In this document: positions 17,366 to 47,293 of the stretch, piece after piece
Layout of the letters: each line of letters opens with the position of its first letter
Numbering within the stretch: the stretch's first letter is position 1
Source: a virus
Taxonomy: Duplodnaviria > Caudoviricetes
DNA: 64,000 nt
Reading direction: 5' to 3' (one strand)
Virus record (IMG/VR): IMGVR_UViG_3300025073_000608
Location: 1 to 64,000 of that record
Program-made: the position numbers and the translations under genes
Notes under the pieces: generated by a model
The model's database searches: none
Told to the model about the DNA's origin: nothing
Seen by the model: the letters and a program-made list of their open reading frames with translations, nothing else

Positions 17366-18250
17366 ATGAGTAATTATTTTTTATGGACAATTGAAGAAAC
17401 AGAAAAATTAAAACAATATTCTGGCAAGATGAGTTTCCATAAAATGAAAGAACTATATTTTCCAAATAGAACAGCTATTAGTTTACAAAAAAAAGCCATT
17501 AAATTAAAACTAATAAGTAATTTTAGAAAAAAGAAACATATTTTTAATCAAGAATTTTATCATCAACCAAATTTAGTAAATTCTTATTTTGCTGGAAATT
17601 TTGCAGCAGATGGTTATTTAAAATATAGGGGGAATTCAACAATGTATGTTCTTCAAGTTAATTCTAAAGATTTAGAACTTTTAGAAAGTTTTAAAAAGGC
17701 ATGTGATTTTTCTGGACCAATTCGCTCTTACCAAAGAAAAAATTATAAAAAAGAAACGTTAAAAAATGTTTCATCTTTAATTATGACAGGGGTAAATCCT
17801 TGGAGAGAGTCTTTAGAAAAGAACTTCGGGATTGTCGAAAATAAAACATTAAGAATGTCTCCCCCCAATATAATTTCCCAAGAATTAAAAATGGCATATA
17901 TAATTGGATATTTAGACGGAGACGGTTCTATTTTATTAAGACCAAAAGAAAATAGATTAAGCATTAGATTTTATAGTTGTAATTTAAAAATTATGGAGTG
18001 GATTCTTTTTGAATTAAATAATTTTTTAAAACTAAAAAATATTTTAAATAAAGCAAATCTTCAGAAAAATAAAAATTTATTTTGTATGGAAATAACTAAT
18101 TTACGAGCAGCAATTATTATTTATTATCTTAAAGACTTCCCCGTTCCCAAACTCTCTCGCAAATGGTCTAATCCGCTAGTCCTTCAATGTATCGAGGACT
18201 ATAAACAAAAATATCCAGAATTCTTTTTAGATAAACCAATAATAACTTAA
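17366..18250 (+). mobile_element. free-standing LAGLIDADG homing endonuclease gene
   Basis: Two motifs YFAGNFAADG and YIIGYLDGDG; N-terminal WTxEE...RT HTH-like domain; more AT-rich than its flanks. Confidence 0.88.
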
Positions 18251-24600: not shown

Positions 24601-27600
24601 CAAAACGTTAGTATTGTTCGATATAAAGATGTGGCTACTTTTGTCGGAGATTATAGTGGGGCACCAACACCACAAACGGGGACATTAAAATTAAGACTCC
24701 CATTTTCTTGGTCTGAAACAATGTTGTATTTGGAAATAGACGGGTATAGCTATAATGCTAGTGCTAGTTATCCCACAACAGGAGCTTGGAAATTATTATT
24801 AGGTGGATTCTGTGCATCATCTACTAATAGTTGGTTTCAATATTCAGCGAAGTCTTTAGGCTCTATTCCCTTTTCTGGGGTAAGATTTGCCCATGATGGA
24901 ACAAATAATTGTATATTATTAGGACAAACAGGCACCGTTTGGTGGTATCCTAAAATATTTCTTTCTCAAATAACAATGGGTTATTTGAATTTTCGTAATA
25001 AATCTACTGGTTATAATTTTACTTTAGTTACTGACGAATCAAATATTACGGGTCAAAAAACTGGTATTTTAAACGAATATTCTAATTCTGACTTATTGGA
25101 TGGTTATCATGCGTCATCGTTTACTTTGGCTTCTCAGACGGGCTCATTTATTACGAGCAGTCAAACGGGTCAGTTTTATCCAATTACGAATCCCGCTTCG
25201 TTTATCCGTTCTGGAGACGTAACGACCACGTATGCGTTAAACACTAAGACGGGGAATTTCGTAGAAGATTCCGATACGGGTAAGTTCGCCGACGCATCGT
25301 TAAGCACGTATTATGCGCTGAATACGAAAACTGGCTCATTTGTCACTTCATTATCTACTGGGGGATTCGTTACTACTGGTCAAACTGGAAATTTTGTGCC
25401 AGCTAGCGTAGGAACTGGATATTTTGATAGATATTATTATCCAGTTAAAGGAATTATTGATAATTGGAGGTTAAGTAATATAGGTAATGCTGTTCCTAAT
25501 TCAGCATTAAAAGGAACGAATACTCCTGGGATTTATGGTTCTGGTGGAGCGATGCCTTATGGATGGAGTTATGCTTATGGAAATCCAACACAGGTTACTG
25601 GAATTGTTGGAAATACTGGCGTTGAAAGTGGTTATGAATATATAGATTTTAGATTATCTGGAAGACCAAATATCGTAAGTGCTGGTGGAGTGTATGCAGC
25701 ATTTAATACCGCAAGATTTTCGCCTGCTAGTGTGGGGGATATTTGGTTAGGAAGTTGTGAAGCAAGATTACTAAGCGGAACAGGGATTACTTTGTCGGTT
25801 TTAATTACAGAAAGAAACTCAGCAGATTCTTCTTTAAATTCTACTTATGGTTCCACAATTACCCTTCTTTCATCTGATACTGGATATCAGACATCAAGTG
25901 GAGTCAGGACTTTTACAGAAGCCACCGTCGCTTATCCTGGTTTACAATTTTTTCATCAAAATACAGCAAATGTAACTGTAGACGCATCGTTTCGTATTAG
26001 AAAACCGTCTTTACGTCTTATTTCTTGGGAAAATGATTACGTTTCGACAACTGGGACTGGTATTAGACCAACGACTGGAGAGATAGTTTTTGCTTCTATG
26101 ACTGGTGGTTTTATTACTACTGGTCAGAGTGGTCAATTTTATCCGATTACCAATCCGGCCTCGTTTATCCGTTCTGGGGATGTAACAACAACGTATGCGC
26201 TGAACACTAAAACGGGCAATTTCGTAGAAGATGCTGATACAGGTAAGTTCGCTGACGCATCATTGAGCACGTATTACGCACTGAATACCAAAACGGGAAG
26301 TTTTATAGATGGCACCGCTTTAACTACTGGATTTGTAAGAACTACAGGTAATCAAACAGTTAGCGGAATTAAGACCTTCGCTTCCCAATTAAAAGTTTCT
26401 TCTATCGTCTCATCTGGAAGTTCTCTTTCGATGGTCGATTTAGAAAATTCTAGAACAACAACAAGCGCGGGCTCGGCAAGTATTGACTGGGATAGTCGTG
26501 ATTTATTAAAGAATACAGAAGATTCGACGTTAAATTGGCAATCAAAATTGCTAACAGGTGGAGCTTGGAATGCAGAAGGACTAACTTTAAGTGGTTATAA
26601 TGTTATTACTGAAGGAAACATAAGTTCTTTTGCGGGGACGCCTTCTTCTACCGGATTTGTAAGAACTACTGGATTACAAGTGGTGAGTGGAACCAAATCT
26701 TTTCTTTCAACTATATATGCGATATATATTGGTTCGGATGGAAGTTCTCAATATATTGATTTTGTAGGCTCACAAATAATAGCCGATGATGGATTAGCTT
26801 CGATTTGGTGGAGTTTAAGAGAGTTGTTAGATAATGGAGAATCTACGACTTTAAACTGGAATACTCGTTTATTAACTGGGGGAAATTGGTATGCCCAAGG
26901 ATTAGTTCTTAGTGGTTATAATGTCGTTACAGAAGGAAACATAACCCAATTTACTTCTGGGACTTCATATACTGGAATTGTTAAAACAACAGGAAATCAA
27001 ACAATTTCAGGAACAAAAACATTTGCCGATAATATTAATGTAAATACAATCGGTCCGGCAGCGGGGGGAAGTTCTATTTCCGTAGATAGCAAACAACTTT
27101 ATAGTTTATTTGGGGTTTCTTTAGATTGGGCATCTTATATTTTAAACGATAATTTAGAGAATTTATCTATTAATTGGTCTGGAAGAATTCTTACTGGAGA
27201 CTGGAAAGCTAAATCATTATCGCTTAGTGGATATAATGTTGTAACAGATAATAAAACTGGAGGATTTTTAGATAGCTCCGCTTTAACTACCGGATATGTA
27301 AGAACTACTGGCAATCAGATAGTTTCTGGAAATAAAACTTTTTATAATAATGTAGGATTTAGAGTAGAAAATGTTGGCATTGCCCAAGCTTATTTCAGTG
27401 GAAATAGTGCCGGAAAAGCTGCTTGTGCCCCAATGAGATTCGGTAGCGGAGCATTAATTGCCAGCCCTGAATCTGGAGCGGTAGAATATGATGGAAATGC
27501 CCTTTATTTAACAGACACCAGGGGTAATAGACGAAGAATCGCTTCTGACAATACCATTTCAGTTAATCCTGGTGCCACCGTCCATCTAAACGCAATATCT

Positions 27601-27876
27601 GGCACAACTTTTAAAGTAAGATTAAAGGAAGATACGTCAATAATTATTACTGGATTATATGATGGACAAGAGATAAGGGTTATCGTTACCAATCCTAAAT
27701 CTCAGTCATGGGTAGTAACATGGACTGGAGAATACTTTTTCTGTTGGGATGGTGCCGGTTCCCCAGTTCAAACGGTGGGGAGCGCGAGTGGGGATAAAAC
27801 GGACTTTTATCGTTTTTCTCGTATTTCTTCTGGGGTATTCGGTTCTTATACTCAGAATTATAATTGGCCAGTGTAA
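18640..27876 (+). CDS. giant modular fibre / adhesin (3078 aa)
   Basis: Fibre repeats TTGNQTISGxKTF, YPxxNPxxF, KTGxFV, DxLDGYHAS; duplicated globular modules. Confidence 0.8.
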   Translation: MPNSWVRLKQLNKPEVSGYILEVVGEYLNTGSITGTATNTGQLTGEFYPRHSNPSGYISSVESDTFVTYPYLSGNNTNILTQVDNGYYPRSNPSGFLVSGQVVSGMMAQTGFAFNSNGQYTGFVLWANTQELPFLKFDGAQNLFQIKSLNNTGIINLSPGISGRSIISGFDLFVSKINNEPYLSSGYITGNFMKSAYFNGASGLILDYLSLQDVIRGGVFHFKTGTSENYYLLGKRLGFPSENIVMDMYGLTNSLYGISSNRPFVLGFNVYAQELYSSGYRAVTTLDFANSGYVTFVQLTGASGALSDAINQVTTNLAITGNYLLNRFTGLENSGNVKTTGNQTITGIKRFTSSVEFSGVDGLSGIQNINSTYWKLTSSGLTIGNTGGYQVIINPNNSTGVFLVKDSTIGYTGPSLGVGFRYDGGGFLSRGKIAFDDEGNTVITAGQVRFAGTTAMVTAGGIFSGNGSLLTNLNTGQLTGVLVQQSDLNNIRLVLYNTGAGTNPLVFTSSAFYLTNQSGTSKINLYDASPYISGFTFKNCIISGYVATTGNQTIAGIKTFTNNIYVSNISNTGNVAGISVVLGILSDPDSLASINWSGRQLLDYSEQEKLNWNSGILVGNWTLSGYNLITQAQTGLFVSTGQSGNFYPRYSNPSNYITAAEAGGVTSINGLSGILTVTGAGQVISTLVGSTFTFSGTTSGLVTTGVTGQFAMASKTGIFINTGQTGQFAIASKTGVFITTSQTGQFARSGSYITGAGTTGYYNLTGILRISGQGTITITTGNVASGQMGLIISGGVPNTGSFITTGQTGQFYSILNPAQFIRSGDVAATYVSGTKTGAFVETGRTGILADRRYVSTGYVAVIGNTSISGTKTFLGTVVTTNIAAKSTITSPTAQIHFAPSYTGPNTAPMKFNSGWLMTTPESGAVEYDGQFLYLTDGTGVRDKFLTSGTGLNLFALNTKTGGFVESSKTGSFVESGKTGSFVENFKTGAFVVSGKTGSFVESSKTGAFVENSETGSFITSSLTGSFITSGQTGQFYPISNPAQFTNSGNISGLVENWKISNRGNAVSNSAMIGGSPGIYNSGGAMPSSWIYANAAGLGQIYAILGQTGFESGYNTLDIRFSGVATYDSTIIVYYLYATQPASTHSGQYWTTNFDARLISGTGIILTPGIVERNSSFTSLGSINGPSVSLINSGYLTLTATSKMTQPTVAYFAPVIYSYYASGVTVDASIRLRKISARQTSWESDYIVTSGIPIYATTGQIVFVSMTGEFYPRSGNPSGFVMGSQTGVFVTTSQTGAYYPINNPASFIRSGDVTTTYALNTKTGDFVEDTKTGSFVEISKLITGSVITTGNQTISGVKTFVSMLHIKTPVDYTGPDAALIKFNSGVLISPPYESGTVEYDGYHLWLTDGTGVRNAIMTSGDITGQFYPISNPASFIRSGDVTTTYALNTKTGNFVEDSDTGKFADASLSTYYALNTKTGAFITSSQTGNFIEQNRTGILSGLILTTGLRMQGPLTTNFNSSLIEAHNNVAFYANNSGGTTAFTGIIKLTMPFSWTTSMMSLELDGFVHDYSGAWKLLLGGTNHATTIPAQWFYCDAKSLGTLPFSGVRFGHDGTNCCVLLGFTGTVWQYPKIILSRVLLGQSNFLNRATGWSFSPITDDSSITGIVTGRLNYLSQADTLDGYHASSFAFASQTGSFITSNQTGAYYPINNPAQFIRSGDVTTTYALNTKTGSFVESSKTGYLERDLYFNSYLSSTGTLSSWWYRIAMSPWSDSGRGAAWVSVGGEGGFTVPGTHVFYISKDWTTGAAISLLHQTNNRFIKARIVLNSVNAFSAFDIFATNTDTGSTPSMFCLVKNDDSFHHSSYKWSGCPWSGYTSLPANEMIMTELDISNNAGLGFAYGMNTGIFKADIFGIQTSNINMTGGIYGATNTGAFVENSDTGKFADASLSTYYTLNTKTGNFVEQNKNANLSGLLTSGLQIRGPTTVDLDQNVSIVRYKDVATFVGDYSGAPTPQTGTLKLRLPFSWSETMLYLEIDGYSYNASASYPTTGAWKLLLGGFCASSTNSWFQYSAKSLGSIPFSGVRFAHDGTNNCILLGQTGTVWWYPKIFLSQITMGYLNFRNKSTGYNFTLVTDESNITGQKTGILNEYSNSDLLDGYHASSFTLASQTGSFITSSQTGQFYPITNPASFIRSGDVTTTYALNTKTGNFVEDSDTGKFADASLSTYYALNTKTGSFVTSLSTGGFVTTGQTGNFVPASVGTGYFDRYYYPVKGIIDNWRLSNIGNAVPNSALKGTNTPGIYGSGGAMPYGWSYAYGNPTQVTGIVGNTGVESGYEYIDFRLSGRPNIVSAGGVYAAFNTARFSPASVGDIWLGSCEARLLSGTGITLSVLITERNSADSSLNSTYGSTITLLSSDTGYQTSSGVRTFTEATVAYPGLQFFHQNTANVTVDASFRIRKPSLRLISWENDYVSTTGTGIRPTTGEIVFASMTGGFITTGQSGQFYPITNPASFIRSGDVTTTYALNTKTGNFVEDADTGKFADASLSTYYALNTKTGSFIDGTALTTGFVRTTGNQTVSGIKTFASQLKVSSIVSSGSSLSMVDLENSRTTTSAGSASIDWDSRDLLKNTEDSTLNWQSKLLTGGAWNAEGLTLSGYNVITEGNISSFAGTPSSTGFVRTTGLQVVSGTKSFLSTIYAIYIGSDGSSQYIDFVGSQIIADDGLASIWWSLRELLDNGESTTLNWNTRLLTGGNWYAQGLVLSGYNVVTEGNITQFTSGTSYTGIVKTTGNQTISGTKTFADNINVNTIGPAAGGSSISVDSKQLYSLFGVSLDWASYILNDNLENLSINWSGRILTGDWKAKSLSLSGYNVVTDNKTGGFLDSSALTTGYVRTTGNQIVSGNKTFYNNVGFRVENVGIAQAYFSGNSAGKAACAPMRFGSGALIASPESGAVEYDGNALYLTDTRGNRRRIASDNTISVNPGATVHLNAISGTTFKVRLKEDTSIIITGLYDGQEIRVIVTNPKSQSWVVTWTGEYFFCWDGAGSPVQTVGSASGDKTDFYRFSRISSGVFGSYTQNYNWPV
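21514..21744 (+). repeat. 27-bp / 9-aa tandem repeat (KTGSFVESS-like), about 8.5 units
   Basis: KTGGFVESS KTGSFVESG KTGSFVENF KTGAFVVSG KTGSFVESS KTGAFVENS ETGSFITSS LTGSFITSG QTGQF. Confidence 0.9.
22939..23033 (+). repeat. 95-bp perfect direct repeat, copy 1
   Basis: tttatccgttctggagacgtaacg...ttcgccgacgc is identical to 25201..25295. Confidence 0.9.
25201..25295 (+). repeat. 95-bp perfect direct repeat, copy 2
   Basis: Identical to 22939..23033; a diverged (mostly synonymous) third copy lies at about 26164..26260. Confidence 0.9.
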
Positions 27877-35514: not shown

Positions 35515-36348
35515 ATGATTGCCCAATTAGATAATAAAGTAATTAGTAGTTTTTTATTATTCGTAGACCACTCTTTACAGTCTACTGGGCAAGCTTTTTT
35601 TAATACTTCTGGGCTTTTTTATCAGGTTCCAAGTAATATAGCTAATACTTATTGTTATGCTTCTACTTATAAATCGTTATGTAATGATAAATCGGTAACG
35701 GGGGTAACTGTTTTGTCAGGTATTTATTTAAATAATGTGCCTATTTCAATTGGTCAAAGTGGATATCAAGGCATTAATCATTATCAAGGAATGCTTTATT
35801 TTACAGGGGCTTTACCTGCTGGAACAGTAGTCAGTGGAGACTTTGGGGTTAAAGAATTTTCAGTACAATTAACCGATAAACCCGAGTGGAAGTTGTTGTT
35901 TGATACAAAATATGTTTCTAATAATTCATCTCCATCTTCGGTAACGGGATTAGATATTGAGGTTAAAACGAGCCCGATTGTATTTATTAAACCTAAAATT
36001 CAGGATTCTAGACCCTTTGCCCTTGGTGGAATGGATAATAGTCAGATAAGACTAAGAGCTATTATTGTCGCCGATAACGAATATCAAAAAATTGCCGCAT
36101 CTTGTGTATTAAAAAATCTAAACTATAGATTTCTACCTATAGCATTATCGACACCATTTTCTCCGCTAGGAACATTAACTGGAACAAATTTCTATCATTA
36201 TAATAATTTAGCGTTTGATTCCATTTACCAACCAATGATTTTAAGTGTAAAAGTAATTGATATACCACAGGATGGTAATTTTAAAAATATCAACAGGAAT
36301 ATGGCTATGGTAGATTTTGATATCTCCGTACTCATAAGACATTGGTAA
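35515..36348 (+). CDS. putative tail terminator protein
   Basis: Directly precedes the tail tube; C-terminal VDFDISV strand. Confidence 0.45.
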   Translation: MIAQLDNKVISSFLLFVDHSLQSTGQAFFNTSGLFYQVPSNIANTYCYASTYKSLCNDKSVTGVTVLSGIYLNNVPISIGQSGYQGINHYQGMLYFTGALPAGTVVSGDFGVKEFSVQLTDKPEWKLLFDTKYVSNNSSPSSVTGLDIEVKTSPIVFIKPKIQDSRPFALGGMDNSQIRLRAIIVADNEYQKIAASCVLKNLNYRFLPIALSTPFSPLGTLTGTNFYHYNNLAFDSIYQPMILSVKVIDIPQDGNFKNINRNMAMVDFDISVLIRHW

Positions 36349-36409: not shown

Positions 36410-37300
36410 ATGCCAGCCAGAATTTTATATGTTGGACAACAAGTAGCAATTTCACCCTACAACACTGGGGTTTCCATAACTCGTTATTTACCAGTTCAAT
36501 CTGCCAGTTGTGAAGTCACTCGACCAATTGAAGATATTCTTTCTTTCGGAAGATTAGGTTCATTGGGCCGTATCCAAAATAGCGTAAGTACTTGCCGAGC
36601 TGATATTAAAACCTATCTTCCTCTTTCCACGGGGGTAGGTCTTATTGATGACTCTTCTCGAACGAACATTCTTGACACGTTGTTAATTCAAACTCTTACG
36701 GGAGAAGCTTTGAATGGACAGGTTTCAACCATAGCCGTTACTCCTAATGGGTTCTATATGTCTGGTATTTTAACTAATATCGGTGTAGAAATTTCTAATG
36801 GGGCTTTCGCTACCGCTTCCCTTTCTTTTGCCGGTGTTGGTGAACCAACGTTTTCTTCCGCCCCAACTGGTGTTGGATTTACCCAACAAACAAACATGCC
36901 TGCTACATTTACTCCTGTCGTATCTAATTATGTATCTGGAGCAGTAAATACTGGATGTGCCAATAGTTTTAGATTTAGTCTTGACCTTCCAAATGAAACG
37001 ATTTCATGTCTTGGGGGTAAAACATCGGGAACTCAACAACAAGTAGCTTCAAGTTTTTCTATGGTTGCTAAACCTCCATTTAAAGCATCTATCAGTGTAG
37101 AGGGAACGTCTGTTGATACTCCTTCTGCTGCGTCTGGTGCCGCCGTATTTACTGTCGGGCGATTAAGTATTCAATTACCTCAAGGGGCAGTTGTTTCTAA
37201 ATCGTTTAATAACGCCGTTGGTAACGTTGGAGCAAGCTACTCTTATTCATTGGAAGACGTTTCTGCCAACTTTAGTGATTTTGGATTGGCTTATCCATAA
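36410..37300 (+). CDS. major tail tube protein
   Basis: VQSASCEVTRPIEDILSFGRLG pattern, SD AAGGA, followed by a terminator, upstream of chaperones and TMP. Confidence 0.75.
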   Translation: MPARILYVGQQVAISPYNTGVSITRYLPVQSASCEVTRPIEDILSFGRLGSLGRIQNSVSTCRADIKTYLPLSTGVGLIDDSSRTNILDTLLIQTLTGEALNGQVSTIAVTPNGFYMSGILTNIGVEISNGAFATASLSFAGVGEPTFSSAPTGVGFTQQTNMPATFTPVVSNYVSGAVNTGCANSFRFSLDLPNETISCLGGKTSGTQQQVASSFSMVAKPPFKASISVEGTSVDTPSAASGAAVFTVGRLSIQLPQGAVVSKSFNNAVGNVGASYSYSLEDVSANFSDFGLAYP

Positions 37301-37746: not shown

Positions 37747-38568
37747 ATGAAAGACATGAAATTTTTATTCGAAACAACTATTAGTAAATTAATAGAAAAC
37801 CCCACTATTGAAAAAACTGTTGACGCCAACGGAAATAAAATAGAAATTAAAAGAATCCTCAAAAAGCTTCAACCAATTAAAGTTGCCATCCTTAAACCTG
37901 ACAGACGTTTATTTAAAGCCGCAGAAATTTTTTATTCTAAAACCCTTGCTGATTATTTAAAGGCGGGGCTATTACCTTATTCATTAGTATCTAAGCGTTA
38001 TGCTAATGATGGTGGGCCGCTTTCAGAGACAGAAAAAGTAAGAATCGAGACTTTAAAGGCTCAAGCTATTAAATTAGAACAAGAGTTCTTCGCTAAAACG
38101 GGTCCAGATGCCGATGGAAATACTGAGTCAAAAAACGAACTTCTTGTTCAAATTAATAAAATCAACTCGGAATTGGGGCAAATTCAAAGTGCTTATTCTG
38201 ATATTTTTGAAAGCACCGCTGAGATGAAGGCTCGTAACGATACGTTAGAATGGTGGTCTTTACAATTGAGTCTTATTCAAGAAAATAGTAAAGAATATAA
38301 ACCTCTTTTCGGAGAGGGAAGTTTCGACGAAAAAATGTCTAAATTAGATGAATTTGATGAGATGAATGATGGCTTTTATTCAGAAGTAATTCGACGCCTC
38401 TCATTTTTAGTTAGTTTTTGGTTTACAGCTCGAAATACAACCATTTCCACTACTGATTTTTCTAATGTCGAAAAGTTATATTTAGAAACATCTAATAATT
38501 ATAATCCTGTGGAAGACCCAGACCCACAACCATTAATTACCGAAACCCCAGCTAATGTCAGCACTTAA
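37747..38568 (+). CDS. putative tail assembly chaperone 1
   Basis: Between tube and TMP; helical, charged. Confidence 0.5.
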   Translation: MKDMKFLFETTISKLIENPTIEKTVDANGNKIEIKRILKKLQPIKVAILKPDRRLFKAAEIFYSKTLADYLKAGLLPYSLVSKRYANDGGPLSETEKVRIETLKAQAIKLEQEFFAKTGPDADGNTESKNELLVQINKINSELGQIQSAYSDIFESTAEMKARNDTLEWWSLQLSLIQENSKEYKPLFGEGSFDEKMSKLDEFDEMNDGFYSEVIRRLSFLVSFWFTARNTTISTTDFSNVEKLYLETSNNYNPVEDPDPQPLITETPANVST

Positions 38569-39403
38569 ATTATCTGAAATTCAGCAGTTAAGATTAATTT
38601 ATAAAGAAATTATTGACGGTTACAGTTTTTTAGACCCAATTTCCGCTTATATTAAGCATCTATCTGAACCAGATAACATTTCTATTTTAAAGAAAAGGCA
38701 AGATTTTTTTAATTTCTATGTCTCTAATGGAATTCTTCCAGAAAAAGAAAAACTAGAAATAGCCTATTTAACAGAACAGTGGACACCAATAAAAGAAGAA
38801 GAAATAGCTGCTCTTAAATTAAGAATCAAAGATAATAGTAAGATGATAGAATCTATTATCCCTCAACAGCAAGAATTTATTAAAAAAGCCATAGAAAAAG
38901 ACAAATTAGACCTCGCTATTTTACTTTTAGAAAGAGAACAATCTTTAGGATTAACTGCCGAAGAATTAAGCGAGAAGGATTGTTTTAGGTATTTAATTTA
39001 TTTTTGTTTTTTTAAAGACAAAGACTGTTCAATCCCATTTTTTAATTCATGGGAAGAATTTGAATTATTAAGCGAGGAAGAAATTGCAAAATATAGTCAA
39101 CTCTTAGAATCTAATATGGTATTATTCTCTGAATTGAATATCCGTCTTATTTCGGTCATGCCATTTTTTATTAATGCATTCTCATACGCGAAAGAGAATG
39201 TCTTCTTTTTTTTAAATAGACCAATTGCATATTTAACCAATCACCAACTTCTTTTAATTGCTTGTGGCTCAAGAAATTTAAATATAGCCTCTCAAAGTAA
39301 AGGTAATCCCCCAGAACCATCTGATAATCAACCCGTTCAACATATTTTGGATTGGTATGACCAAAATTATAGTATCATGTTAGGTAAGAGAGATACTCGC
39401 TAA
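38555..39403 (+). CDS. putative tail assembly chaperone 2
   Basis: Immediately upstream of TMP; helical. Confidence 0.5.
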   Translation: MSALKLSEIQQLRLIYKEIIDGYSFLDPISAYIKHLSEPDNISILKKRQDFFNFYVSNGILPEKEKLEIAYLTEQWTPIKEEEIAALKLRIKDNSKMIESIIPQQQEFIKKAIEKDKLDLAILLLEREQSLGLTAEELSEKDCFRYLIYFCFFKDKDCSIPFFNSWEEFELLSEEEIAKYSQLLESNMVLFSELNIRLISVMPFFINAFSYAKENVFFFLNRPIAYLTNHQLLLIACGSRNLNIASQSKGNPPEPSDNQPVQHILDWYDQNYSIMLGKRDTR

Positions 39404-39436: not shown

Positions 39437-42400
39437 ATGGGATATAACATGATGTTAAAGATTGGTACGGAAGTGGATTCTTCCCCGGTAACGAGGTTTA
39501 TGAACGACATGCGTTCTAAATCGGCTGCTCTTGGCGCGTCCCTCTCTAAAAGCGATTTTATACCGGCTCTAGGAAGAATTACTGGTAAAGCTACCGAATT
39601 CCAAAAATCATTAGCGGCTTCTAATGCTCGTGTTATTGCTTTCGGTGCTTCTGCTGGGTCTATTTATGCGTTAAGAACCGCCTTCGTTAAATTAGTAGAA
39701 TCTACCGTTCAAGTAGAAAAAGCCTTATCTAGCATTAATTCTTTACTTAATTTGGGTTCTCGCGACCTACAATCATTTTCTAATAATTTATTTAGAATAG
39801 CTAATCAAACTGGGGTTAGTTTTCAAGATGCGGCCAAAGCTGCTACCGAATTTTCTCGTCAGGGTTTAGGGGTAGAAGAAACCCTTAAAAGAACCAGCGC
39901 AGCTCTTGCTCTTAGTCGTCTTTCGGGTTTAGGATATGAAGAAGCCGTTTCTTCTTTAACTGGTGCTCTAAACAGCTTTACCAAAGAAGCTCTTGACGCC
40001 GAAGATGTTGTTAATAGATTAGCGTCTGTAGATGCTAAATATGCTGTTAGTGCTGGAGATTTAGCTAAAGCCCTAAGCCGAGTAGGTGCCTCTGCGAGCG
40101 ATGCCAATGTTTCTTTTAATGAAACCATTGCCCTAGTTACTGCTGCCCAACAAGTTACTGCTCGTGGTGGTAGCGTCATCGGTAACGCCTTTAAGACCAT
40201 TTTTACTCGTCTACAACGTCCCGAGGTTCTTTTAGACCTTGAAAGTGCGGGAGTAATGGTTCGAAATTTACAGGGAGAAATGCTTCCTCTTATTCAAGTA
40301 TTAAAAAATTTATCTTCTACTTATGATAGTTTAGCGGTTGCCCAAAAATCGTTTGTTGCGGAAATGGTCGGTGGAGTTTATCAAATTAACATTTTGAAAG
40401 CTATTATGGCTGACCTTGGTTCTAATATGAGTATTTTTGGTGGGGCCATGAAAACTGCCGAAGAATCAATTGGTTCAGTGGATGCTCGTTTAAAAATTCT
40501 TAACAATACTATTTCAGCTCAACTTATCAGAACAACGAACGAGCTAGAAAAATCTTTTAATAATATTGGAACTTTATTACTAGGTGGTTCTATGCGTTCT
40601 GGATTAGATGTTTTTAATTCTCTTCTTAGTAAAGTAACGGCATTTACTGATAAAAGTTCAACTGAAGACGAAGGGATTTATCAAAAGATTGAATCTGTCG
40701 GGGCTCAAGGATTACTTAAAGGGGTGGCTACTATTTTAGGTGGGCCAGCAATTCAATTCGCATTATTTGCTATTTTAAAATTATTCGAACGTTTGCAGAA
40801 GTTCGTTATTGACTCTACTAAAGATTTCGTTGGATTAGACCAGAAAGCTAAAGAACGAGAGGCTATAGAACAAACAATCGTTGCATTACTAACTCAAGAA
40901 AAAGATGCTTTAGATAAATTAGTTTCTGGAGAGGAAACGGTATTATCAAAATCTCAGGCGATTTTAGCAACATTACAAAAACAAAATACAGAATTAAAAT
41001 TACGCGCTACTTATGCGAGCGCCATGACTAATATTCTAGCTCCATCTATTAGTATGGGCAAAACGGCTGCTGGAGGATTTGTCCCTAACCTAGCTTTAGA
41101 CCCAGAGCAAGCTGCCGCTAGGTCATTAGGATATTTTGCCGGAAGAACATTGTCTACTCAGGTAAAAGTAGGGAGTTCTTCGTTGAGAGTATTGGCTAAT
41201 GCTAATGAAAGTAAATCAACTGTCATTGGACCTAATGGAATGGCTTATGATTATATTCATCCACCAGAGGGGACTAAAGCTTGGGACTTACATAGAGCTA
41301 ATTCTATAGCGACCAATGGCATAGACCCAAAATTGTTAGCTAGAAGACCCGTAGCTGGGGGTTTTGTTCCTAATTTGGCAATTCCAAAATCAGCCCGAAG
41401 TTTGGGTTCTGGTTCTTATGGGGAGTTTTTTGATTATAGAAAAAATATTGGTGGTTATAGTATTGGCGCAAAAAAATTTAATACATCTTATTTAGATGAT
41501 GGTTCTGTCGATGAAATGATGTTGCATGAATCTGTTTCAAAAGAATATACTACCGGAAAAAAATTAGAAGCTCTAAATAAAGAGGGTTCGTTATTTACTT
41601 ATCCCAAAATATTTGGTGGATTATCGGGGTCAATGAGGGCTGGAAGAGTTGGTAAAGAAGTTCTTCCTGGAAGAAATCTATGGGATGCTTCTAAAAGTTC
41701 TATTCAAAGAAGTAGGCAGTTTGGTCGATATGAAGATTTAATGTCAGCTTTACAATTGTCTGCATTTCGAGAGATGATGAGTGTCGGAGTCCATGCTAAT
41801 GATTTTATTGGTCATCCAGGAAATACTGTTTTTAATGATAGAGCATTAGATATTTTTGATAAAATTAATAAAAATCCTAATAAAGCTGGTAAACTATCCG
41901 ATAGATTAAGAAAGAACCCACGACTTCAGTCTCAAGTGGGAGCGTCAATGGCAAGACAAGGGGCTAGACTTGGTGTTGTAGACCCTGTTTATGCTGGTGG
42001 TTTTATTCCTAATTTAGCTTTTGAAGATAATTTCTTTCAACCGAATGATTTATCTGAAGCCGCAAAACAATTCTTACCTGGACCTCAATATGATTTATTC
42101 ATGAAAAGAGCCCAGAAAAAAGGGCTAATTCCAAAAAGCAAAGAAGATTTAAGAAAATGGCTAGGTGGTGTCGCCGTGGGCAAAACTGGATTTGAAGGAT
42201 TTTCCTCAGAATCGGCAGACGCTTTCGCAAGTATCATGACCCGAAGTAATATAGCTGGAGAAAGAATGGCCAAACAGTCAGCTATTAATACTAAAATTAA
42301 TCCTGCCGATGCCCAAGAAATGCTCTCTTGGCTAGCACCGCAATTTCCCATGATTGCTGCCTATGCCCAATCTAGTAATGTTAAACCTTTTAAGAATTAT

Positions 42401-45400
42401 TCCTATGTAACCCCATTTCAAGCTGGAGAAAATTCTTTTAGAGTTCCTTTGAAATTTTTATCTCATTCTCAAGGACCAGCTTTATACGAAAAATTAATGG
42501 CAGACGCAAAGACGATGGGTTTTCCTCTTCCGAAAGAATCAATGGGGAGCGTGTTTGGAAATATATTCGATGCCTCAATGAAGAACTTCTTTCAGGAGCG
42601 CGGAGTGCCTGTTGGGGGTAAAAACGCAGCATTAGATATTATGGGATATCATCCTGATATCGCCCAATATATTGGAACAAACGAAAAATTCTCTGGGGCA
42701 GAAATTAAAGCTAGTATCGAAGAGGGTATAACTTCAATGCCTGGAAAGATTTTTAGAACTTTAGTAGGCGATGACGCTGGAAGATTAGTCGGTCCATCTT
42801 CAAAAGTTCCTCCTATTTTGGGGGTTAATACTTTTAATGAAAAAAGAGGTAATATTGGAATTTTAGATAGGGATACTTTTCAATCATCGGCTTCTCGTAG
42901 CACTAACTCTTTTGAATCATTGTTATATGGAGCAATGGCTACTCGTAGACCTTTAATGGTCCAAACTGGACCAATGGGAGCGGGGAAATTGGCGGCGGCT
43001 AAGGGTATGGGTGGTAAAATGATTTTATCCCAAGCCGACTTGGCAGGAGTAGAACAACTCTTATTAAATACTACCTCTCAAGCTGATACTGGAGTTTATG
43101 GATTAGCTTATGGACTTGCGTCTAAGATTAAAGCATTTAGGGGTTCTATTCCTTCTCTTAGAGCCAGAATGATTTCAGAAGGACGAAAAGAAAATCCTAA
43201 TGCTACTATTCACGAGGGAACAATGCAAGAATTTGAGGCTTTATTTGCTCGTTTAGAAAAGGAAATGGGGCCGTTAGGTCGATTATCTTATATGTCTGCT
43301 GCTGGAGGATTTATTTCTCCACTTGGGGAAGCTTTAAGGGCAGAAAATTCCATGACGGGGGGAAGAGGTCGAGTTGGTTCTCATCCCTTATTAGTTTCTC
43401 CATCTAATCCGATGGGTTTAGCTGCTTTTGATTCTAATCAGGGGACTGTTGGTAATGCAATTAATCAACATTCTTCTCGACAAAGTTTAGGACAAATTAA
43501 GCGACAACGAAGTTCTGCGGGAGGATTTATTCCTAATTTAGCAGAAGGAGAAATTTTTGGAACAAATTTAGGTAATTCTGTAATGTTAAGTTTAGTTGGA
43601 TTTGCCTCTCAATTAAATTATTCTCGGGATATCATGTCTAAGGTAAATAGCAAATATGGATTCTTTTTAAATTCTCACGATAAAGAATTGCAAAAAATGA
43701 ATCTCGTCACCCAAGAATATTCCAGATTACATAAATCCTTATTAAAACAAGAAACTGCACAAGTGTTCTTTACTTCTTCGTTAGATAAAAGTGCTGAAAA
43801 AGTTAGATTTACATCTCCAAAAGAAATGGAAGATAAATTTGGGGCATCCATTCAAGGATATTCTGAGGCTTTAAATAAAGAAAAATCAAGACTAGAAACA
43901 TCAAAACAATCAACTTTTAAAGCAGGACTTTTCACTAGTTTCGGTGGAGCTATGCTTGGGGGAATGGCATCTTCTATCGCGGGAAAATTTAGTCCTACTG
44001 CTGGGGCAGCTTTTGATAATTTAACTACTGCTGCCACTAATGCTGGACAGGCACTAGTGACATTTCCAAATAGAATAGGCAAAACAATTGCTGGCGGTAT
44101 TGCTGGGGCAGGAATAACACAGTCTTTAGATACCTGGATGAAAGGATTAGAGGGTTCTCGTTTTCAATTAGAGTTACAAACATCTAAAACTCAAAAATTT
44201 ATATCAAAACTTGATGCTCTTACCAGAACATTAGGAGAATATGATACTCTTGTTCATGATTCTGCTGTTCCTCTTCGGGTTTTAAATCAAGAAACAGTTA
44301 AATATATTAATCTTCTTTCCGAACTTAAAACTTCATCGGCTACGACTAATGGAGAAGGAAAGGTTTTGGCCGCAAGAATTGAATCGGCACCTACAAGTGC
44401 CGCAAAAATAGGACTATTACAAGAAGCAAGAGCCCTTAAGGAAAAAGAATTAGAAAAAGCTCAACTTGGACAATTAATTATGGAGTTGTCGGGAAAAAGG
44501 TCTGGATTAGGAATGAGTAGCGGAACCTTTAGTTATAATTCGGAATTAGAAAAAAGTTCTGTAGAACAAAATATCTCGTCTATCGCTGGGGGTATTGTTA
44601 ATCAATTATCTGAAGAGGTTAAAACTTCATTAAAAAATAACGTTACACAAGCGGGAACTTTTAGAAATATTTTAAATAACGATAAGACATCTAGTTCTTT
44701 TATAAATTCTATAGGAGAAAGAGGAAAAGGAGAACAAGATATTCAGGTTATTGTTCAAAAAATGAGGAATATCATGGCTCAACAACAGATGTCCTCATTG
44801 CCTGAAGCTGTTTCCGCACGAGAAACTCTTACTCAACAGAATTCTGTCCGACAACAAAGACTAGAAATGGTTACTCAACGAGAGCAATCACTTAGAAGAT
44901 TATATATTAATCAGGGGTCGTTTGCTACAGATAATGCGTTGGGATTAAGGGGTCTTGCAGCAAAACAATCATATGGAAAAACCACTTTAGAGGCCGAAAA
45001 GACTAACGCCCTTATGCCATTATTGCAACAACAATTTGGGGAAAGGTCTATAAGAAGTTTAAGAACCTCTATGGAACTTAACCAGGTTTCTAATGAGGGA
45101 CAATTTAAAGAGGGAGAAATAGCTAGAGACGTTCAGGGCTCTTTAAAAAATATTTATGTTCAATCTTTCGATAGCATGGCTAAAAATCTTACCGCAACTC
45201 AATTGGGCGCTAAAGGATTACAATCTACTATTAATCCTAGTTCTCAAGTGCTAATTGAAGGACTCAATACTGGTTTAGCTAAAGTATTGGGCCAAGGAAA
45301 TATTTTAAAAGACTTTAAGACTCCAACTGGTGGGTTTAATTTTGAAGCTTTTGAAAAAATGGTCGCTGCTTCTTCTGGCACATCTATTGGTGACCAATCA

Positions 45401-47293
45401 AAAATACAAAAATACATGGAATCGAATAGGTCACCAGAAGTATTAAAAGCTATTCAACAGGGAGTATTTTTAACAGCTAATAACACCCTAGATACCGCTG
45501 AAAAATCAGACAAAATCGTGGCCGGATTTGAAGCTTTTAGACAAGAAATGAATTTCAAACAGTTAGCAAATTTCATGGGCGGAATGAAAAATTTCATGGA
45601 TAGAGATTCTCGTCGCACTTTTAGACAAGATATCGTGCGCGGGCTCTCTCTCATGGAAAAGGGAACTAATCCAGAAATTAAAGGCCAAGGGGCAATGTTA
45701 TTTTTAAATAAAATGAAGGAAAGTAATGTTGCTATTGATTTAAGTGGCAAAAATCCTCTTTCTAAATTAATGTCAAGAGCTTTTTCTACAGCCCAATCGG
45801 GAATATCGTTTTCTCAAGATAAGTCATTTAATGAAATGTCGGGGATGTTACAACGACTTGGTTTATCTAAAGAAACAGTGAGCGGTTTTAAAGGATATAA
45901 ACAGGCAGGCTCAGAGATGTCTGCTTTAGCTTCATTACAGCTCCAACTACAACCAGAAAACGCAAAAATGTTACAGGCTGGAGATAAAGATATTTCGACT
46001 ATCCCAAAACAACTTAATGAAGCATTTTCCCAAACCTCTAAAGAAATTAAGGGATTTGGAGAATCTTTAGTTACCACAGGTAAGCAAGTAAAATCCGCTT
46101 TACAAGATATTACGGATGTCAGAAAACTAAATGCTGCTTCTGAAGCAACCGATTTAAAACGTTTTACTGATGTTATGGAAAAGATTGCTAAACGTTTTGA
46201 GGGGGCGACACAGGAACCAGAGCTTAAAAAACAATGGAACATCGCTGGTTCCTTACCAAGTGTTGGTGGGGCTGTGGCTGGAGCAGCCATTACTGGGGCC
46301 ATACAATTATTTGCCTATAATAGATTAGGAAAACTATTAGCTCAACAAGCAGCTTATAAACCTCAAGCACAATATTCTTCTTCTAAATATTATCCAGTTA
46401 ATTTTGATGATGATGTTGGTGTTCCTAGAGGCCAAGGTCCATATCGTCCTTATAATCCTGTTAGTCGTCCAGGAACACCTATATTTATGCCGGGGGTCGG
46501 TGGAGAAGAAGCTAGAAGGAAAATGTCATTTTTCCAAAATATGAAAAATAGGGCGGGAAAGATGAATTGGAAAGGAATAGGAAAAGGAGGAATGATAGCT
46601 TCGGCAATGATGCTTCCTATGATGTTACAAGCAGGAGAAGAATCAGGGGGAACTTCAGCTCTTGGAACTGCCGCTTCTTACGGAGGATTAGCTTCTATGG
46701 GAATGGCTGCTGCTAATATTGGGTCGAAATTTGCTGGTCCGGTTGGACTAGGAACCTCTGTGGCTTATGGAAGTTTCTCTGCCGGTCAAGCCCTTTATAA
46801 ATCAAGAATGGGAGATGTAAATCTTAGTAGTCGAGGGTTTGAAATCGAGCAATATGTTCAATCTAGATTGATGAAGGGGGACAGTAACGAAAAAATGACC
46901 CAATATTTAGACAAACTTATTAAAACTAATGATGAAAGCGCAAAATCACTAGATGGATGGCAAAAAGCATTTAGTCCTACAGCAAATGGACAATTGGGAA
47001 GTTTACAATCATCTACTCAAGAATTAAAGGCTATCCGAGCTAATTTAGACGTTATTAAACAAAATGGAGAACAACAAAAAGCCTTAGAAAACGCTGCTAA
47101 AACTGGAGAACCAGCCACAGTTAACTCTAATATGAAAGTCGAGATTTCATTAAAAGACGCCGCTAATGTTCCAGACATGATTATGAAAACATTTATTGAG
47201 CCATTAAAGGCTAAATTAGCTGAGTTACAAGCTCAAGTTGTTAATCTTCAATCAATAAATAATGTTACCGTAGCTCCCGCTGCCATAGAATAA
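39437..47293 (+). CDS. tape measure protein with inserted cargo domains
   Basis: N-terminal TP901-type TMP core (EFSRQGL, AVSAGDLAKAL, GSVIGNAFKTIFTRL); Ala/Gly-rich hydrophobic segments; 2618 aa. Confidence 0.92.
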   Translation: MGYNMMLKIGTEVDSSPVTRFMNDMRSKSAALGASLSKSDFIPALGRITGKATEFQKSLAASNARVIAFGASAGSIYALRTAFVKLVESTVQVEKALSSINSLLNLGSRDLQSFSNNLFRIANQTGVSFQDAAKAATEFSRQGLGVEETLKRTSAALALSRLSGLGYEEAVSSLTGALNSFTKEALDAEDVVNRLASVDAKYAVSAGDLAKALSRVGASASDANVSFNETIALVTAAQQVTARGGSVIGNAFKTIFTRLQRPEVLLDLESAGVMVRNLQGEMLPLIQVLKNLSSTYDSLAVAQKSFVAEMVGGVYQINILKAIMADLGSNMSIFGGAMKTAEESIGSVDARLKILNNTISAQLIRTTNELEKSFNNIGTLLLGGSMRSGLDVFNSLLSKVTAFTDKSSTEDEGIYQKIESVGAQGLLKGVATILGGPAIQFALFAILKLFERLQKFVIDSTKDFVGLDQKAKEREAIEQTIVALLTQEKDALDKLVSGEETVLSKSQAILATLQKQNTELKLRATYASAMTNILAPSISMGKTAAGGFVPNLALDPEQAAARSLGYFAGRTLSTQVKVGSSSLRVLANANESKSTVIGPNGMAYDYIHPPEGTKAWDLHRANSIATNGIDPKLLARRPVAGGFVPNLAIPKSARSLGSGSYGEFFDYRKNIGGYSIGAKKFNTSYLDDGSVDEMMLHESVSKEYTTGKKLEALNKEGSLFTYPKIFGGLSGSMRAGRVGKEVLPGRNLWDASKSSIQRSRQFGRYEDLMSALQLSAFREMMSVGVHANDFIGHPGNTVFNDRALDIFDKINKNPNKAGKLSDRLRKNPRLQSQVGASMARQGARLGVVDPVYAGGFIPNLAFEDNFFQPNDLSEAAKQFLPGPQYDLFMKRAQKKGLIPKSKEDLRKWLGGVAVGKTGFEGFSSESADAFASIMTRSNIAGERMAKQSAINTKINPADAQEMLSWLAPQFPMIAAYAQSSNVKPFKNYSYVTPFQAGENSFRVPLKFLSHSQGPALYEKLMADAKTMGFPLPKESMGSVFGNIFDASMKNFFQERGVPVGGKNAALDIMGYHPDIAQYIGTNEKFSGAEIKASIEEGITSMPGKIFRTLVGDDAGRLVGPSSKVPPILGVNTFNEKRGNIGILDRDTFQSSASRSTNSFESLLYGAMATRRPLMVQTGPMGAGKLAAAKGMGGKMILSQADLAGVEQLLLNTTSQADTGVYGLAYGLASKIKAFRGSIPSLRARMISEGRKENPNATIHEGTMQEFEALFARLEKEMGPLGRLSYMSAAGGFISPLGEALRAENSMTGGRGRVGSHPLLVSPSNPMGLAAFDSNQGTVGNAINQHSSRQSLGQIKRQRSSAGGFIPNLAEGEIFGTNLGNSVMLSLVGFASQLNYSRDIMSKVNSKYGFFLNSHDKELQKMNLVTQEYSRLHKSLLKQETAQVFFTSSLDKSAEKVRFTSPKEMEDKFGASIQGYSEALNKEKSRLETSKQSTFKAGLFTSFGGAMLGGMASSIAGKFSPTAGAAFDNLTTAATNAGQALVTFPNRIGKTIAGGIAGAGITQSLDTWMKGLEGSRFQLELQTSKTQKFISKLDALTRTLGEYDTLVHDSAVPLRVLNQETVKYINLLSELKTSSATTNGEGKVLAARIESAPTSAAKIGLLQEARALKEKELEKAQLGQLIMELSGKRSGLGMSSGTFSYNSELEKSSVEQNISSIAGGIVNQLSEEVKTSLKNNVTQAGTFRNILNNDKTSSSFINSIGERGKGEQDIQVIVQKMRNIMAQQQMSSLPEAVSARETLTQQNSVRQQRLEMVTQREQSLRRLYINQGSFATDNALGLRGLAAKQSYGKTTLEAEKTNALMPLLQQQFGERSIRSLRTSMELNQVSNEGQFKEGEIARDVQGSLKNIYVQSFDSMAKNLTATQLGAKGLQSTINPSSQVLIEGLNTGLAKVLGQGNILKDFKTPTGGFNFEAFEKMVAASSGTSIGDQSKIQKYMESNRSPEVLKAIQQGVFLTANNTLDTAEKSDKIVAGFEAFRQEMNFKQLANFMGGMKNFMDRDSRRTFRQDIVRGLSLMEKGTNPEIKGQGAMLFLNKMKESNVAIDLSGKNPLSKLMSRAFSTAQSGISFSQDKSFNEMSGMLQRLGLSKETVSGFKGYKQAGSEMSALASLQLQLQPENAKMLQAGDKDISTIPKQLNEAFSQTSKEIKGFGESLVTTGKQVKSALQDITDVRKLNAASEATDLKRFTDVMEKIAKRFEGATQEPELKKQWNIAGSLPSVGGAVAGAAITGAIQLFAYNRLGKLLAQQAAYKPQAQYSSSKYYPVNFDDDVGVPRGQGPYRPYNPVSRPGTPIFMPGVGGEEARRKMSFFQNMKNRAGKMNWKGIGKGGMIASAMMLPMMLQAGEESGGTSALGTAASYGGLASMGMAAANIGSKFAGPVGLGTSVAYGSFSAGQALYKSRMGDVNLSSRGFEIEQYVQSRLMKGDSNEKMTQYLDKLIKTNDESAKSLDGWQKAFSPTANGQLGSLQSSTQELKAIRANLDVIKQNGEQQKALENAAKTGEPATVNSNMKVEISLKDAANVPDMIMKTFIEPLKAKLAELQAQVVNLQSINNVTVAPAAIE
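41069..43543 (+). repeat. five dispersed AGGF(V/I)PNLA-type peptide repeats in TMP
   Basis: 41069-41095, 41354-41380, 41993-42019, 43301-43324 (degenerate AGGFISPL) and 43517-43543. Confidence 0.9.

Follow-up and report, generated by a model that had tools for sequence, protein, structure and literature searches.

What is a nine-residue peptide doing when it recurs five times in the middle of a phage tape measure protein (TMP), and what lies between its copies? The question is raised by a giant open reading frame (ORF) in the stretch of 64,000 nucleotides (nt) analysed here, called the window, which is the first 64 kb of the 105-kb IMG/VR virus record IMGVR_UViG_3300025073_000608 (completeness estimate 54%). 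An earlier reading of the letters, below called the original prediction, had taken the peptide AGGF(V/I)PNLA for a processing signal or module junction that lets the phage load exchangeable effectors into its tail. In the relatives of this TMP, modules are gained, lost, duplicated and reordered exactly at the peptide, hereafter the motif. The explanation that we consider best, with a probability of about 0.6, is that of a polyvalent TMP, in which a conserved ruler scaffold would be interrupted by an array of independently folding modules, with enzymes carried into the host. The features discussed are collected in Table 1.

The ORF has the traits of its class. PF10145 (PhageMin_Tail, TP901 type) matches amino acids (aa) 122-310 (E 3.5e-28, 99.3 bits against a gathering cut-off of 33.2), and ten PHROG tape measure families match aa 22-536; the protein is very long, has a hydrophobic segment in its C-terminal part, and lies in a tail block whose upstream ORFs are co-conserved in 63-74 of 80 related loci. 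The N-terminal core shares 43-59% identity with relatives, its family being present in 109 of 118 clustered proteins, and the C-terminal region is 26-36% identical to the equivalent region of relatives. The database copy of the window TMP (P0002, 2613 aa) begins five codons after the first ATG of the ORF (39437..39451), and the true start is thus uncertain by five residues.

Four copies of the motif match AGGF[VI]PNLA exactly, at aa 545, 640, 853 and 1361, and a degenerate one stands at aa 1289, just as had been predicted; the unit sizes of 86, 204, 427 and 64 aa given at that time correspond to start-to-start spacings of 95, 213, 436 and 72 aa minus the 9-aa motif, and these units are called S1 to S4 here. 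The peptide is indeed absent elsewhere, both from the other frames of the window (six-frame translation) and from the other ORFs of at least 100 aa of the 105-kb record. From composition, 0.0058 matches to the core G.[VI]PN[LF] and 1.7e-7 matches to the 9-mer would be expected by chance, and in none of 20000 shuffled versions did the TMP reach four core matches (mean 0.005). The copies use different codons in the window, as the original prediction stated, indicating conservation at the protein level. In two AlphaFold2 models, all six motif instances lie within stretches of low confidence, where the predicted local distance difference test (pLDDT) falls below 50 or dips to about 57. Every copy lies in such a linker between confidently folded domains, and the boundaries of BLAST alignments and the insertions found in relatives fall there as well, which supports the peptide as a module junction. 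Where the window has the degenerate copy 4, relatives have a canonical copy, placed before the small domain R2 that forms S4.

The motif is a property of the whole family. A word-indexed search with aa 520-1400 returned 15 proteins, the window's own among them, and an exhaustive HMMER scan with aa 545-1369 against 1.84 billion representative proteins gave 34 matches, nearly all of which are TMP-like proteins of 1900-5300 aa. Five matches are shorter; for two of them the cluster includes full-length proteins, and the others come from contigs of 4-26 kb, so they look like fragments, and free-standing module genes were rejected on these grounds. A scan of IMG/VR with the family alignment found relatives of the N-terminal core encoded on at least 564 contigs, and 80 loci were retained; in what follows, P numbers denote the database relatives (40) and L numbers the loci. 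The search of related TMPs for the motif that had been proposed as a check was positive, as the core G-x-[VI]-P-N-[LF] occurs in 37 of the 40 database relatives and in the longest ORF of 78 of the 80 IMG/VR loci, with at least four core matches in that ORF in 50 of the 80. Of the two exceptions, L008 has its TMP in another ORF, which contains the motif, and L080 is truncated at the end of its contig. The density of the core is 282 per 180,073 aa of TMP against 4 per 252,884 aa of the other plus-strand ORFs of the same loci (about 100-fold), and two of these four matches fall in the real TMP of L008.

Among 121 instances in P proteins (at most two mismatches), the successive positions are A (98), any residue, G (120), F (87, also H or Y), I (67) or V (52), P (120), N (112), L (113), and A (58) or S (20). 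F replaces this L in more distant members and in most IMG/VR loci, and the family form of the motif is A-x-G-(F/Y/H)-[VI]-P-N-[LF]-[AS]. All four codons are used at the Gly and at the Pro position among the 282 instances. Over 18 nt, copies within one genome share 84% identity; their exact runs have a median length of 8 nt, and 15 of 435 pairs are identical throughout. This synonymous variation, together with the retention of the motif where the modules are only 20-35% identical, indicates that selection acts on the protein. On this evidence from sequences, the motif is under protein-level selection, and its coding microhomology of 8-18 nt may still offer in-frame recombination points.

To describe the arrays, 118 proteins were cut at the motif and the pieces were clustered by BLAST. 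The common plan is an N-terminal core, a small domain R1, one or more middle modules, R2 and a long C-terminal region; the clustering merged R1 and R2 (150 pieces in 92 of the 118 proteins). The simplest architecture, core-R1-rod, is that of P0038 (2065 aa), and the richest is that of P0018 (4223 aa), with 10 motif copies, 11 segments and 9 internal modules. The S2-type module stands directly after R1 in the window and after other modules in P0004, P0018, P0019 and P0020, and it is duplicated in P0022, P0029 and P0037. Close relatives give the clearest view of the exchange: P0007 and P0008, with 78% identity over 1180 aa, differ by an insert of 550 aa with its ends on the motifs at 1163 and 1713, and P0009 and P0010, with 84% identity, by one of 502 aa with its ends on the motifs at 1170 and 1672. 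The expectation that the content between repeats would vary while the flanks are conserved was thus borne out, module set and order differing among relatives.

Two other claims of the original prediction stood in part. The units were called interchangeable cassettes, and S2 and the P-loop half of S3 are indeed variable, being additions by the window's clade, but S1 (R1), S4 (R2) and the nuclease-like core of S3 belong to the family framework. The array was also called non-TMP-like sequence; all four units are predicted to be globular alpha/beta domains, but their only sequence relatives among the 1.84 billion representative proteins are other giant TMPs or fragments (34 matches). Beyond the modules of the window, motif copies enclose at least 12 other families of modules, with sizes of 110-600 aa (P0004, P0005, P0007, P0010, P0018 and P0020; L033, L045 and L072), and some of them are related by profile (a 180-aa and a 360-aa family at 97.3%, a 126-aa and a 174-aa family at 97.6%). 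A Pfam search of the module-rich relatives P0018 and P0007 returned only PF10145 above its cut-off.

The folds of the units were predicted with AlphaFold2, model 1 covering aa 845-1375 with 23 relatives (24 rows; pLDDT 85.2, predicted template modelling score, pTM, 0.70) and model 2 covering aa 530-870 (28-29 rows; pLDDT 80.2, pTM 0.59). Globular alpha/beta segments rather than extended helices were obtained. The two large units had been said to carry enzyme-like motifs, and this agrees with a predicted protein-kinase-like fold in S2 and with a PD-(D/E)xK-type signature plus a predicted P-loop kinase fold in S3.

S2 is predicted to be a minimal protein-kinase-like domain. Foldseek returned kinases only (CDK2, PknA and Src), with probabilities up to 0.99 and E-values of 5e-3 to 2e-2. 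In VIA-align, which is independent of Foldseek, 50 of 50 rows were kinase-like and 16 chains had a Z of at least 8; the best was PknE (Z 10.1, root-mean-square deviation (rmsd) 3.7, 145 aligned), with RIOK3 at 9.3 and both OspG and Rio2 at 9.2, and further rows included Bud32, aminoglycoside phosphotransferases and NleH1 (7.5). The window has a Gly loop at 657-664, Lys 679, Glu 703, a loop with D789..N796..N800, and Asp 849 just before motif copy 3, which we take to be the Gly-rich loop, ATP-binding Lys, helix-C Glu, catalytic Asp..Asn and metal-binding Asp of kinases. Regular expressions matched the Gly loop in 13, the Lys in 15, the Glu in 14, the D..N loop in 12 and the final Asp in 13 of the 15 segments of the S2 family. 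S2 ends right after the metal-binding Asp and thus lacks the C-terminal subdomain, and the same substrate-binding subdomain is missing from RIO, Bud32 and the effector kinases OspG and NleH (8zdb, 1tqi, 8k20, 4q5h, 4lrj), with which S2 aligns over 129-150 residues at Z 7.5-9.3. However, the identity to these minimal kinases is 9-16%, some members of the S2 family have a two-residue insert in the catalytic loop, and S2 matched no curated kinase profile, with only PF10145 found in Pfam at E up to 1.

The first half of S3 is predicted to consist of a helical bundle and, after it, an alpha/beta domain with a putative PD-(D/E)xK-type signature, which in the window consists of FD 1044-1045, D1067, E1089-x-K1091 and K1104. 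It shares a core of about 80 residues with the common middle modules of about 260 aa of the IMG/VR relatives (hhalign 93.6% and 97.5%). In 39 diverse sequences (mean column identity 21%), G..FE, FD, the K of the [DE]xK triplet and another K are invariant and the acid of the triplet varies between Asp and Glu, and the regular expression of the signature matches 75 of 77 middle modules. The pattern of an acidic residue in a helix, D and (D/E)xK is presumably that of the PD-(D/E)xK nuclease superfamily. The fold-search lists for S3 were filled by matches of the P-loop domain, and the middle-module profile returned only three lectin rows among PDB sequences, which were judged spurious.

The second half of S3 is predicted to have a P-loop kinase fold. 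VIA-align gave zeta toxin 6epg_B (rmsd 3.8, 150 aligned) at Z 8.6, which is near the background stated for the aligner, UMP kinase at 7.4, polynucleotide kinase at 6.8, and many other kinases at Z 5.5-7.4; Foldseek gave adenylate and thymidylate kinases (E 5.6e-3), and BFVD gave phage proteins with a zeta-toxin domain at weak E-values. The predicted fold is that of zeta toxins, nucleoside monophosphate kinases and polynucleotide kinases (6epg, 1ukz, 4gp6), and the relatives mostly have GxxxxGKT, but the Z-scores of 8.6, 7.4 and 6.8 do not separate these subfamilies, there is no Pfam match and the window has GKL. Of 21 relatives, 17 have a Walker A GK[ST]; a conserved Asp (1201 in the window) lies about 19 residues after the Lys. 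A second GxxxxGKT-like string occurs at about aa 909-916 (nt ~42161..42184) in the helical start of S3 and is probably due to chance, since it falls beyond the P-loop fold and the alignment shows no conservation of it. A search of the ESM Atlas with S3 and S2 gave no usable lead.

The two small domains belong to the framework, and R1 can be aligned across the P proteins and 16 IMG/VR loci. Between R1 and R2, hhalign aligns the motif only, so they are two different domains, and the idea of one repeat family was rejected. An intramolecular "clasp", in which motif copies would pair and loop out the module between them, was likewise set aside, the copies being unpaired in AlphaFold2, which is a weak indication only.

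We now return to the polyvalent TMP and to how it may work. TMPs are known to occupy the tail lumen and to exit first at infection, as in lambda and T5. The N-terminal core with PF10145 and the long C-terminal region would form the ruler scaffold, and R1, a PD-(D/E)xK-type middle domain and R2 would be the modules of the family framework, to which the window's clade would have added the kinase-like S2 and, in fusion with the nuclease-like domain, a P-loop kinase. Every module boundary but this fusion is marked by the motif in a disordered linker. By analogy with TM4, the modules may be stored in the tube in unfolded form and take up their folds once ejected, and the enzymes would travel with the TMP into the host before phage gene expression, as other TMPs suggest. 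Once delivered, they may act on host or defence targets, like head-borne polyvalent proteins; kinases need ATP, which implies a cytoplasmic site of action.

Several points weigh against this explanation. The junction of the nuclease-like and P-loop halves of S3 has no motif. The alignments used for folding are shallow (24 and 28-29 rows) and were taken from whole proteins, with some rows misaligned; Pfam, PHROG and NCBIfam match nothing in the protein besides the TMP core, and Foldseek gave no E-value of 0.001 or lower for the modules. The nuclease assignment is made by the signature, and the best Z of the P-loop domain is close to background. In the window the Walker A is GPMGAGKL (aa 1178-1185), its Leu replacing the Thr of relatives, so that GxxxxGK[ST] is not matched and this P-loop domain may be inactive or impaired. 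The phage collection gave no tblastn match to aa 500-1420; with aa 1-660 the matches were limited to remote TMP cores from Bacillus and Lactococcus phages (24-31% identity), none reaching R1, so that no cultured relative is present there. The tail lumen is about 4 nm wide, and folded domains of 200-430 aa in at least three copies would be a tight fit. When a 114-aa motif embedded in gp17 of TM4 was deleted, the tails became about 20 nm shorter, in line with the prediction for an extended chain (Piuri and Hatfull 2006, PMC1796659, available passages), which suggests that modules of this kind may be stored unfolded or that tails vary widely in length.

The role of the motif itself is a separate matter. 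We favor a signal recognised by a protein partner over a passive spacer. That the motif is bound but not cut during chaperoning or threading seems to us possible, at somewhat less than even odds; cutting at some stage is a tentative option, and a passive hinge is rather unlikely. In an uncut version that we also hold only tentatively, the motif would be a docking or registration site for an assembly partner, such as a chaperone, the tube lumen or another TMP chain, and the TMP would stay intact. With its hydrophobic and Pro-Asn core and its place in a disordered linker, the motif has the typical look of peptide-in-groove motifs, the three ORFs upstream co-occur with the family in 68-74 of 80 loci, and an embedded TMP motif stays part of the ruler in TM4 (PMC1796659, available passages). 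Nevertheless, AlphaFold2 pairs the motif copies neither with each other nor with the domains, and a site for a chaperone should also recur along the rod, yet the motif is found only at module junctions. A proteolytic site of an injected or assembled polyprotein, cleaved autocatalytically or by a protease of phage or host to free the enzymes, is in our view doubtful. Lambda gpH and T5 pb2 do undergo processing, the motif is a conserved peptide of 6-9 residues in disordered linkers at domain boundaries, like the sites of viral polyproteins, it has small residues at both ends, and polyvalent proteins have been proposed to be processed (PMC5512222, available passages). However, profile searches found no protease domain in the TMP, in P0018 and P0007 or in the conserved neighbours. 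The flanking ORFs of 79 related loci are almost free of the motif and, as said, the other ORFs of at least 100 aa of the record lack it, which makes a shared prohead-protease site unlikely; this speaks against the prohead-protease route of the original prediction, as does its ORF 13967..15451, which matches no Pfam or NCBIfam family. Cutting by a host enzyme, or after ejection, would be compatible with these results. The TMP is split at the motif in none of 115 loci, with one ambiguous case (L103), the short database relatives look like fragments, and cutting before assembly would destroy the ruler. The script that looked for natural gene splits at motifs, none of which was convincing, also gave two matches in a non-TMP ORF (L022, L023). 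Sortase-like, prepilin-like and IPTL-type sorting signals were rejected, their key residues and transmembrane context not fitting. The injected form of the polyprotein, in which a cut at the motif after exit, by a host or phage enzyme or by chemistry at the invariant Asn, would free the kinase, the nuclease and the P-loop kinase in the cytoplasm before phage expression, is unlikely.

Two further readings concern the DNA and the destination of the modules. If the motif were a recombination linker only, its repeated DNA would promote in-frame module exchange and the peptide would have no role of its own; insertions among close relatives do start and end on the motif, and copies within a genome share runs of 8-18 nt, but Gly and Pro use four codons each, no more than the 15 of 435 pairs of copies from one genome agree over all 18 nt, and the peptide is kept at low module identity (20-35%). 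We regard this reading as very improbable, a role as DNA linker only being at odds with the synonymous variation. It is also improbable, although less so, that the modules serve the producing cell or tail assembly, as late enzymes or folding aids, and not the next host. The nuclease-like domain, R1 and R2 are conserved framework and not variable cargo, as such a role would have it, but embedding in the tail protein that exits first would be hard to explain otherwise, and the variable, shuffled enzyme sets resemble conflict systems.

Polymorphic toxins exchange cassettes on a constant delivery scaffold, and viral polyproteins have a conserved peptide at their domain boundaries. The TMP array resembles both, but no immunity genes, spare cassettes or protease are seen here. 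The polyvalent proteins of phages and conjugative elements, the nearest concept in print, which include truncated Ser/Thr/Tyr-type kinases and zeta-toxin-like kinases, are likewise giant and virion-associated, with unrelated catalytic domains and variable architectures, and their co-delivery with DNA, perhaps with processing, has been proposed (Iyer, Burroughs, Anand, de Souza, Aravind 2017, PMC5512222, available passages). Their truncated kinases lack the C-terminal subdomain, as S2 does. The TMP has what appear to be several unrelated catalytic-type domains (kinase-like fold, P-loop kinase fold and PD-(D/E)xK-type signature), and its domain architecture varies among relatives. Unlike the TMP-borne modules, however, polyvalent proteins are described in those passages as head-packaged or transfer-associated (MuF, N4 vRNAP-like, DarB-like); "tape measure" occurs 0 times in the main text of that paper, and its available passages contain no conserved junction peptide. 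In the literature searched, there is no description of a TMP with a kinase, nuclease, zeta toxin or polyvalent architecture, nor of this peptide. For the candidate new system of the original prediction, the polyvalent proteins are a precedent.

An enzyme motif inside a TMP is in itself not new. That of TM4 gp17 is dispensable for assembly, aids infection and counts in the ruler; according to the available passages, however, embedded motifs of this type are single, have peptidoglycan targets outside the cytoplasm and are not fenced by a repeat, whereas here predicted ATP-dependent kinases and a putative nuclease-type domain stand in a shuffled array. The Sle1-type effectors of actinobacterial contractile injection systems also have a TMP-related scaffold with exchangeable domains and are packaged inside a tail-like tube (PMC13277306, available passages). 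They belong to a bacterial injection device, though, with one C-terminal functional domain and, in those passages, no repeated junction motif.

Table 1. Coordinates in the window of the tape measure ORF, its parts and the ORFs directly upstream
Feature	Coordinates	Strand	Basis and remarks
Tape measure protein ORF	39437..47293	+	2618 aa plus stop; ORF list and translation
N-terminal TMP core with PF10145, aa 1-544	39437..41068	+	Pfam, PHROG
Motif copy 1, AGGFVPNLA, aa 545-553	41069..41095	+	pLDDT <50 (model 2 residues 1-23)
S1 = R1, predicted helix, four strands, helix, ~90 aa	41096..41353	+	AlphaFold2 pLDDT 87-93, model 2 residues 31-110
Motif copy 2, AGGFVPNLA, aa 640-648	41354..41380	+	pLDDT <50 (model 2 residues 113-119)
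S2, predicted minimal protein-kinase-like domain, aa 649-852	41381..41992	+	AlphaFold2, Foldseek, VIA-align
Motif copy 3, AGGFIPNLA, aa 853-861	41993..42019	+	pLDDT <50 in both models
S3 first half, predicted helical bundle then alpha/beta domain, putative PD-(D/E)xK-type signature	42020..42823	+	AlphaFold2 pLDDT mostly 81-98
S3 second half, predicted P-loop kinase fold, aa ~1130-1292	42824..43300	+	VIA-align, Foldseek, BFVD
Motif copy 4, degenerate AGGFISPLG, aa 1289-1297	43301..43327	+	pLDDT dip to ~57, model 1 residues 446-449
S4 = R2, ~70 aa, with RENxxTGG, NPxGLAA, QH	43328..43516	+	AlphaFold2 pLDDT 76-89
Motif copy 5, AGGFIPNLA, aa 1361-1369	43517..43543	+	Low pLDDT at model 1 end
C-terminal TMP region, aa 1370-2618	43544..47293	+	Hydrophobic stretch near aa 2275 (hydropathy)
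Three upstream ORFs, 117, 273 and 282 aa	37377..39403	+	Homologues in 68, 73 and 74 of 80 loci

Judging from their position, the three upstream ORFs are candidate tail assembly chaperones or other partners of the TMP. The 273-aa ORF (37747..38568) and the 282-aa ORF (38555..39403) overlap by 14 nt, the ATG of the second lying inside the end of the first; the 273-aa ORF has invariant TAE and WW motifs, and both are larger than usual tail assembly chaperones. PHROG, Pfam and NCBIfam searches of the neighbours, including these three, gave nothing above a curated cut-off. Further upstream, 36410..37300 (+) has a weak match to a PHROG major tail protein (E 4.5e-4) and homologues in only 9 of 80 loci, and 35515..36348 (+), which has no family name, has homologues in 69 of 80; either of the two may be the tube protein. 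A second giant ORF of 3078 aa (18640..27876, +) lies upstream of the tail genes, and just upstream of it is a 294-aa ORF (17366..18250, +) with LAGLIDADG homing-endonuclease domains (PF14528, E 2.3e-8; PF00961, E 1.6e-5). Near the start of the window, a 310-aa ORF (1686..2618, +) has an ERCC4-type nuclease match of 23.2 bits, slightly short of the gathering score of 24, together with a weak C2H2 zinc finger, and the large terminase (2618..4453; PF03237, E 4.6e-8) is directly downstream of it.

The genome-contig relatives with more than 34% identity sit in metagenome-binned genomes or assemblies of uncultured isolates, with the exception of L086, titled 'Gammaproteobacteria bacterium strain', and their bin names are most often Flavobacteriales, Flavobacteriaceae or Flavobacterium. 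The 24 closest of them (L082-L105, 35-52% identity) are nearly all in binned genomes, with bin names that span Flavobacteriales, Proteobacteria, Neomarinimicrobiota, Saccharibacteria, Nitrospinales, Verrucomicrobiales and Bacillota. One phage family across so many phyla suggests that phage contigs were swept into the bins, and the bin names are thus poor host evidence.

With at least 564 IMG/VR contigs and no cultured member in the phage collection searched, the family marks a gap in the model phages. The junction peptide marks natural sites of cassette exchange, makes processing testable by mass spectrometry and defines the units to assay. Should the modules be delivered, ready-made enzymes would have a second way into the host through tails, beside the ejection proteins packaged in the head, and the cargo would be kinases and a nuclease rather than cell-wall hydrolases, arriving before transcription, which bears on how phages may pre-empt defence. 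If the reading as an injected polyprotein were true, the scaffold and the junction peptide would together be a natural plug-in system for bringing variable protein cargo into the host through a phage tail.

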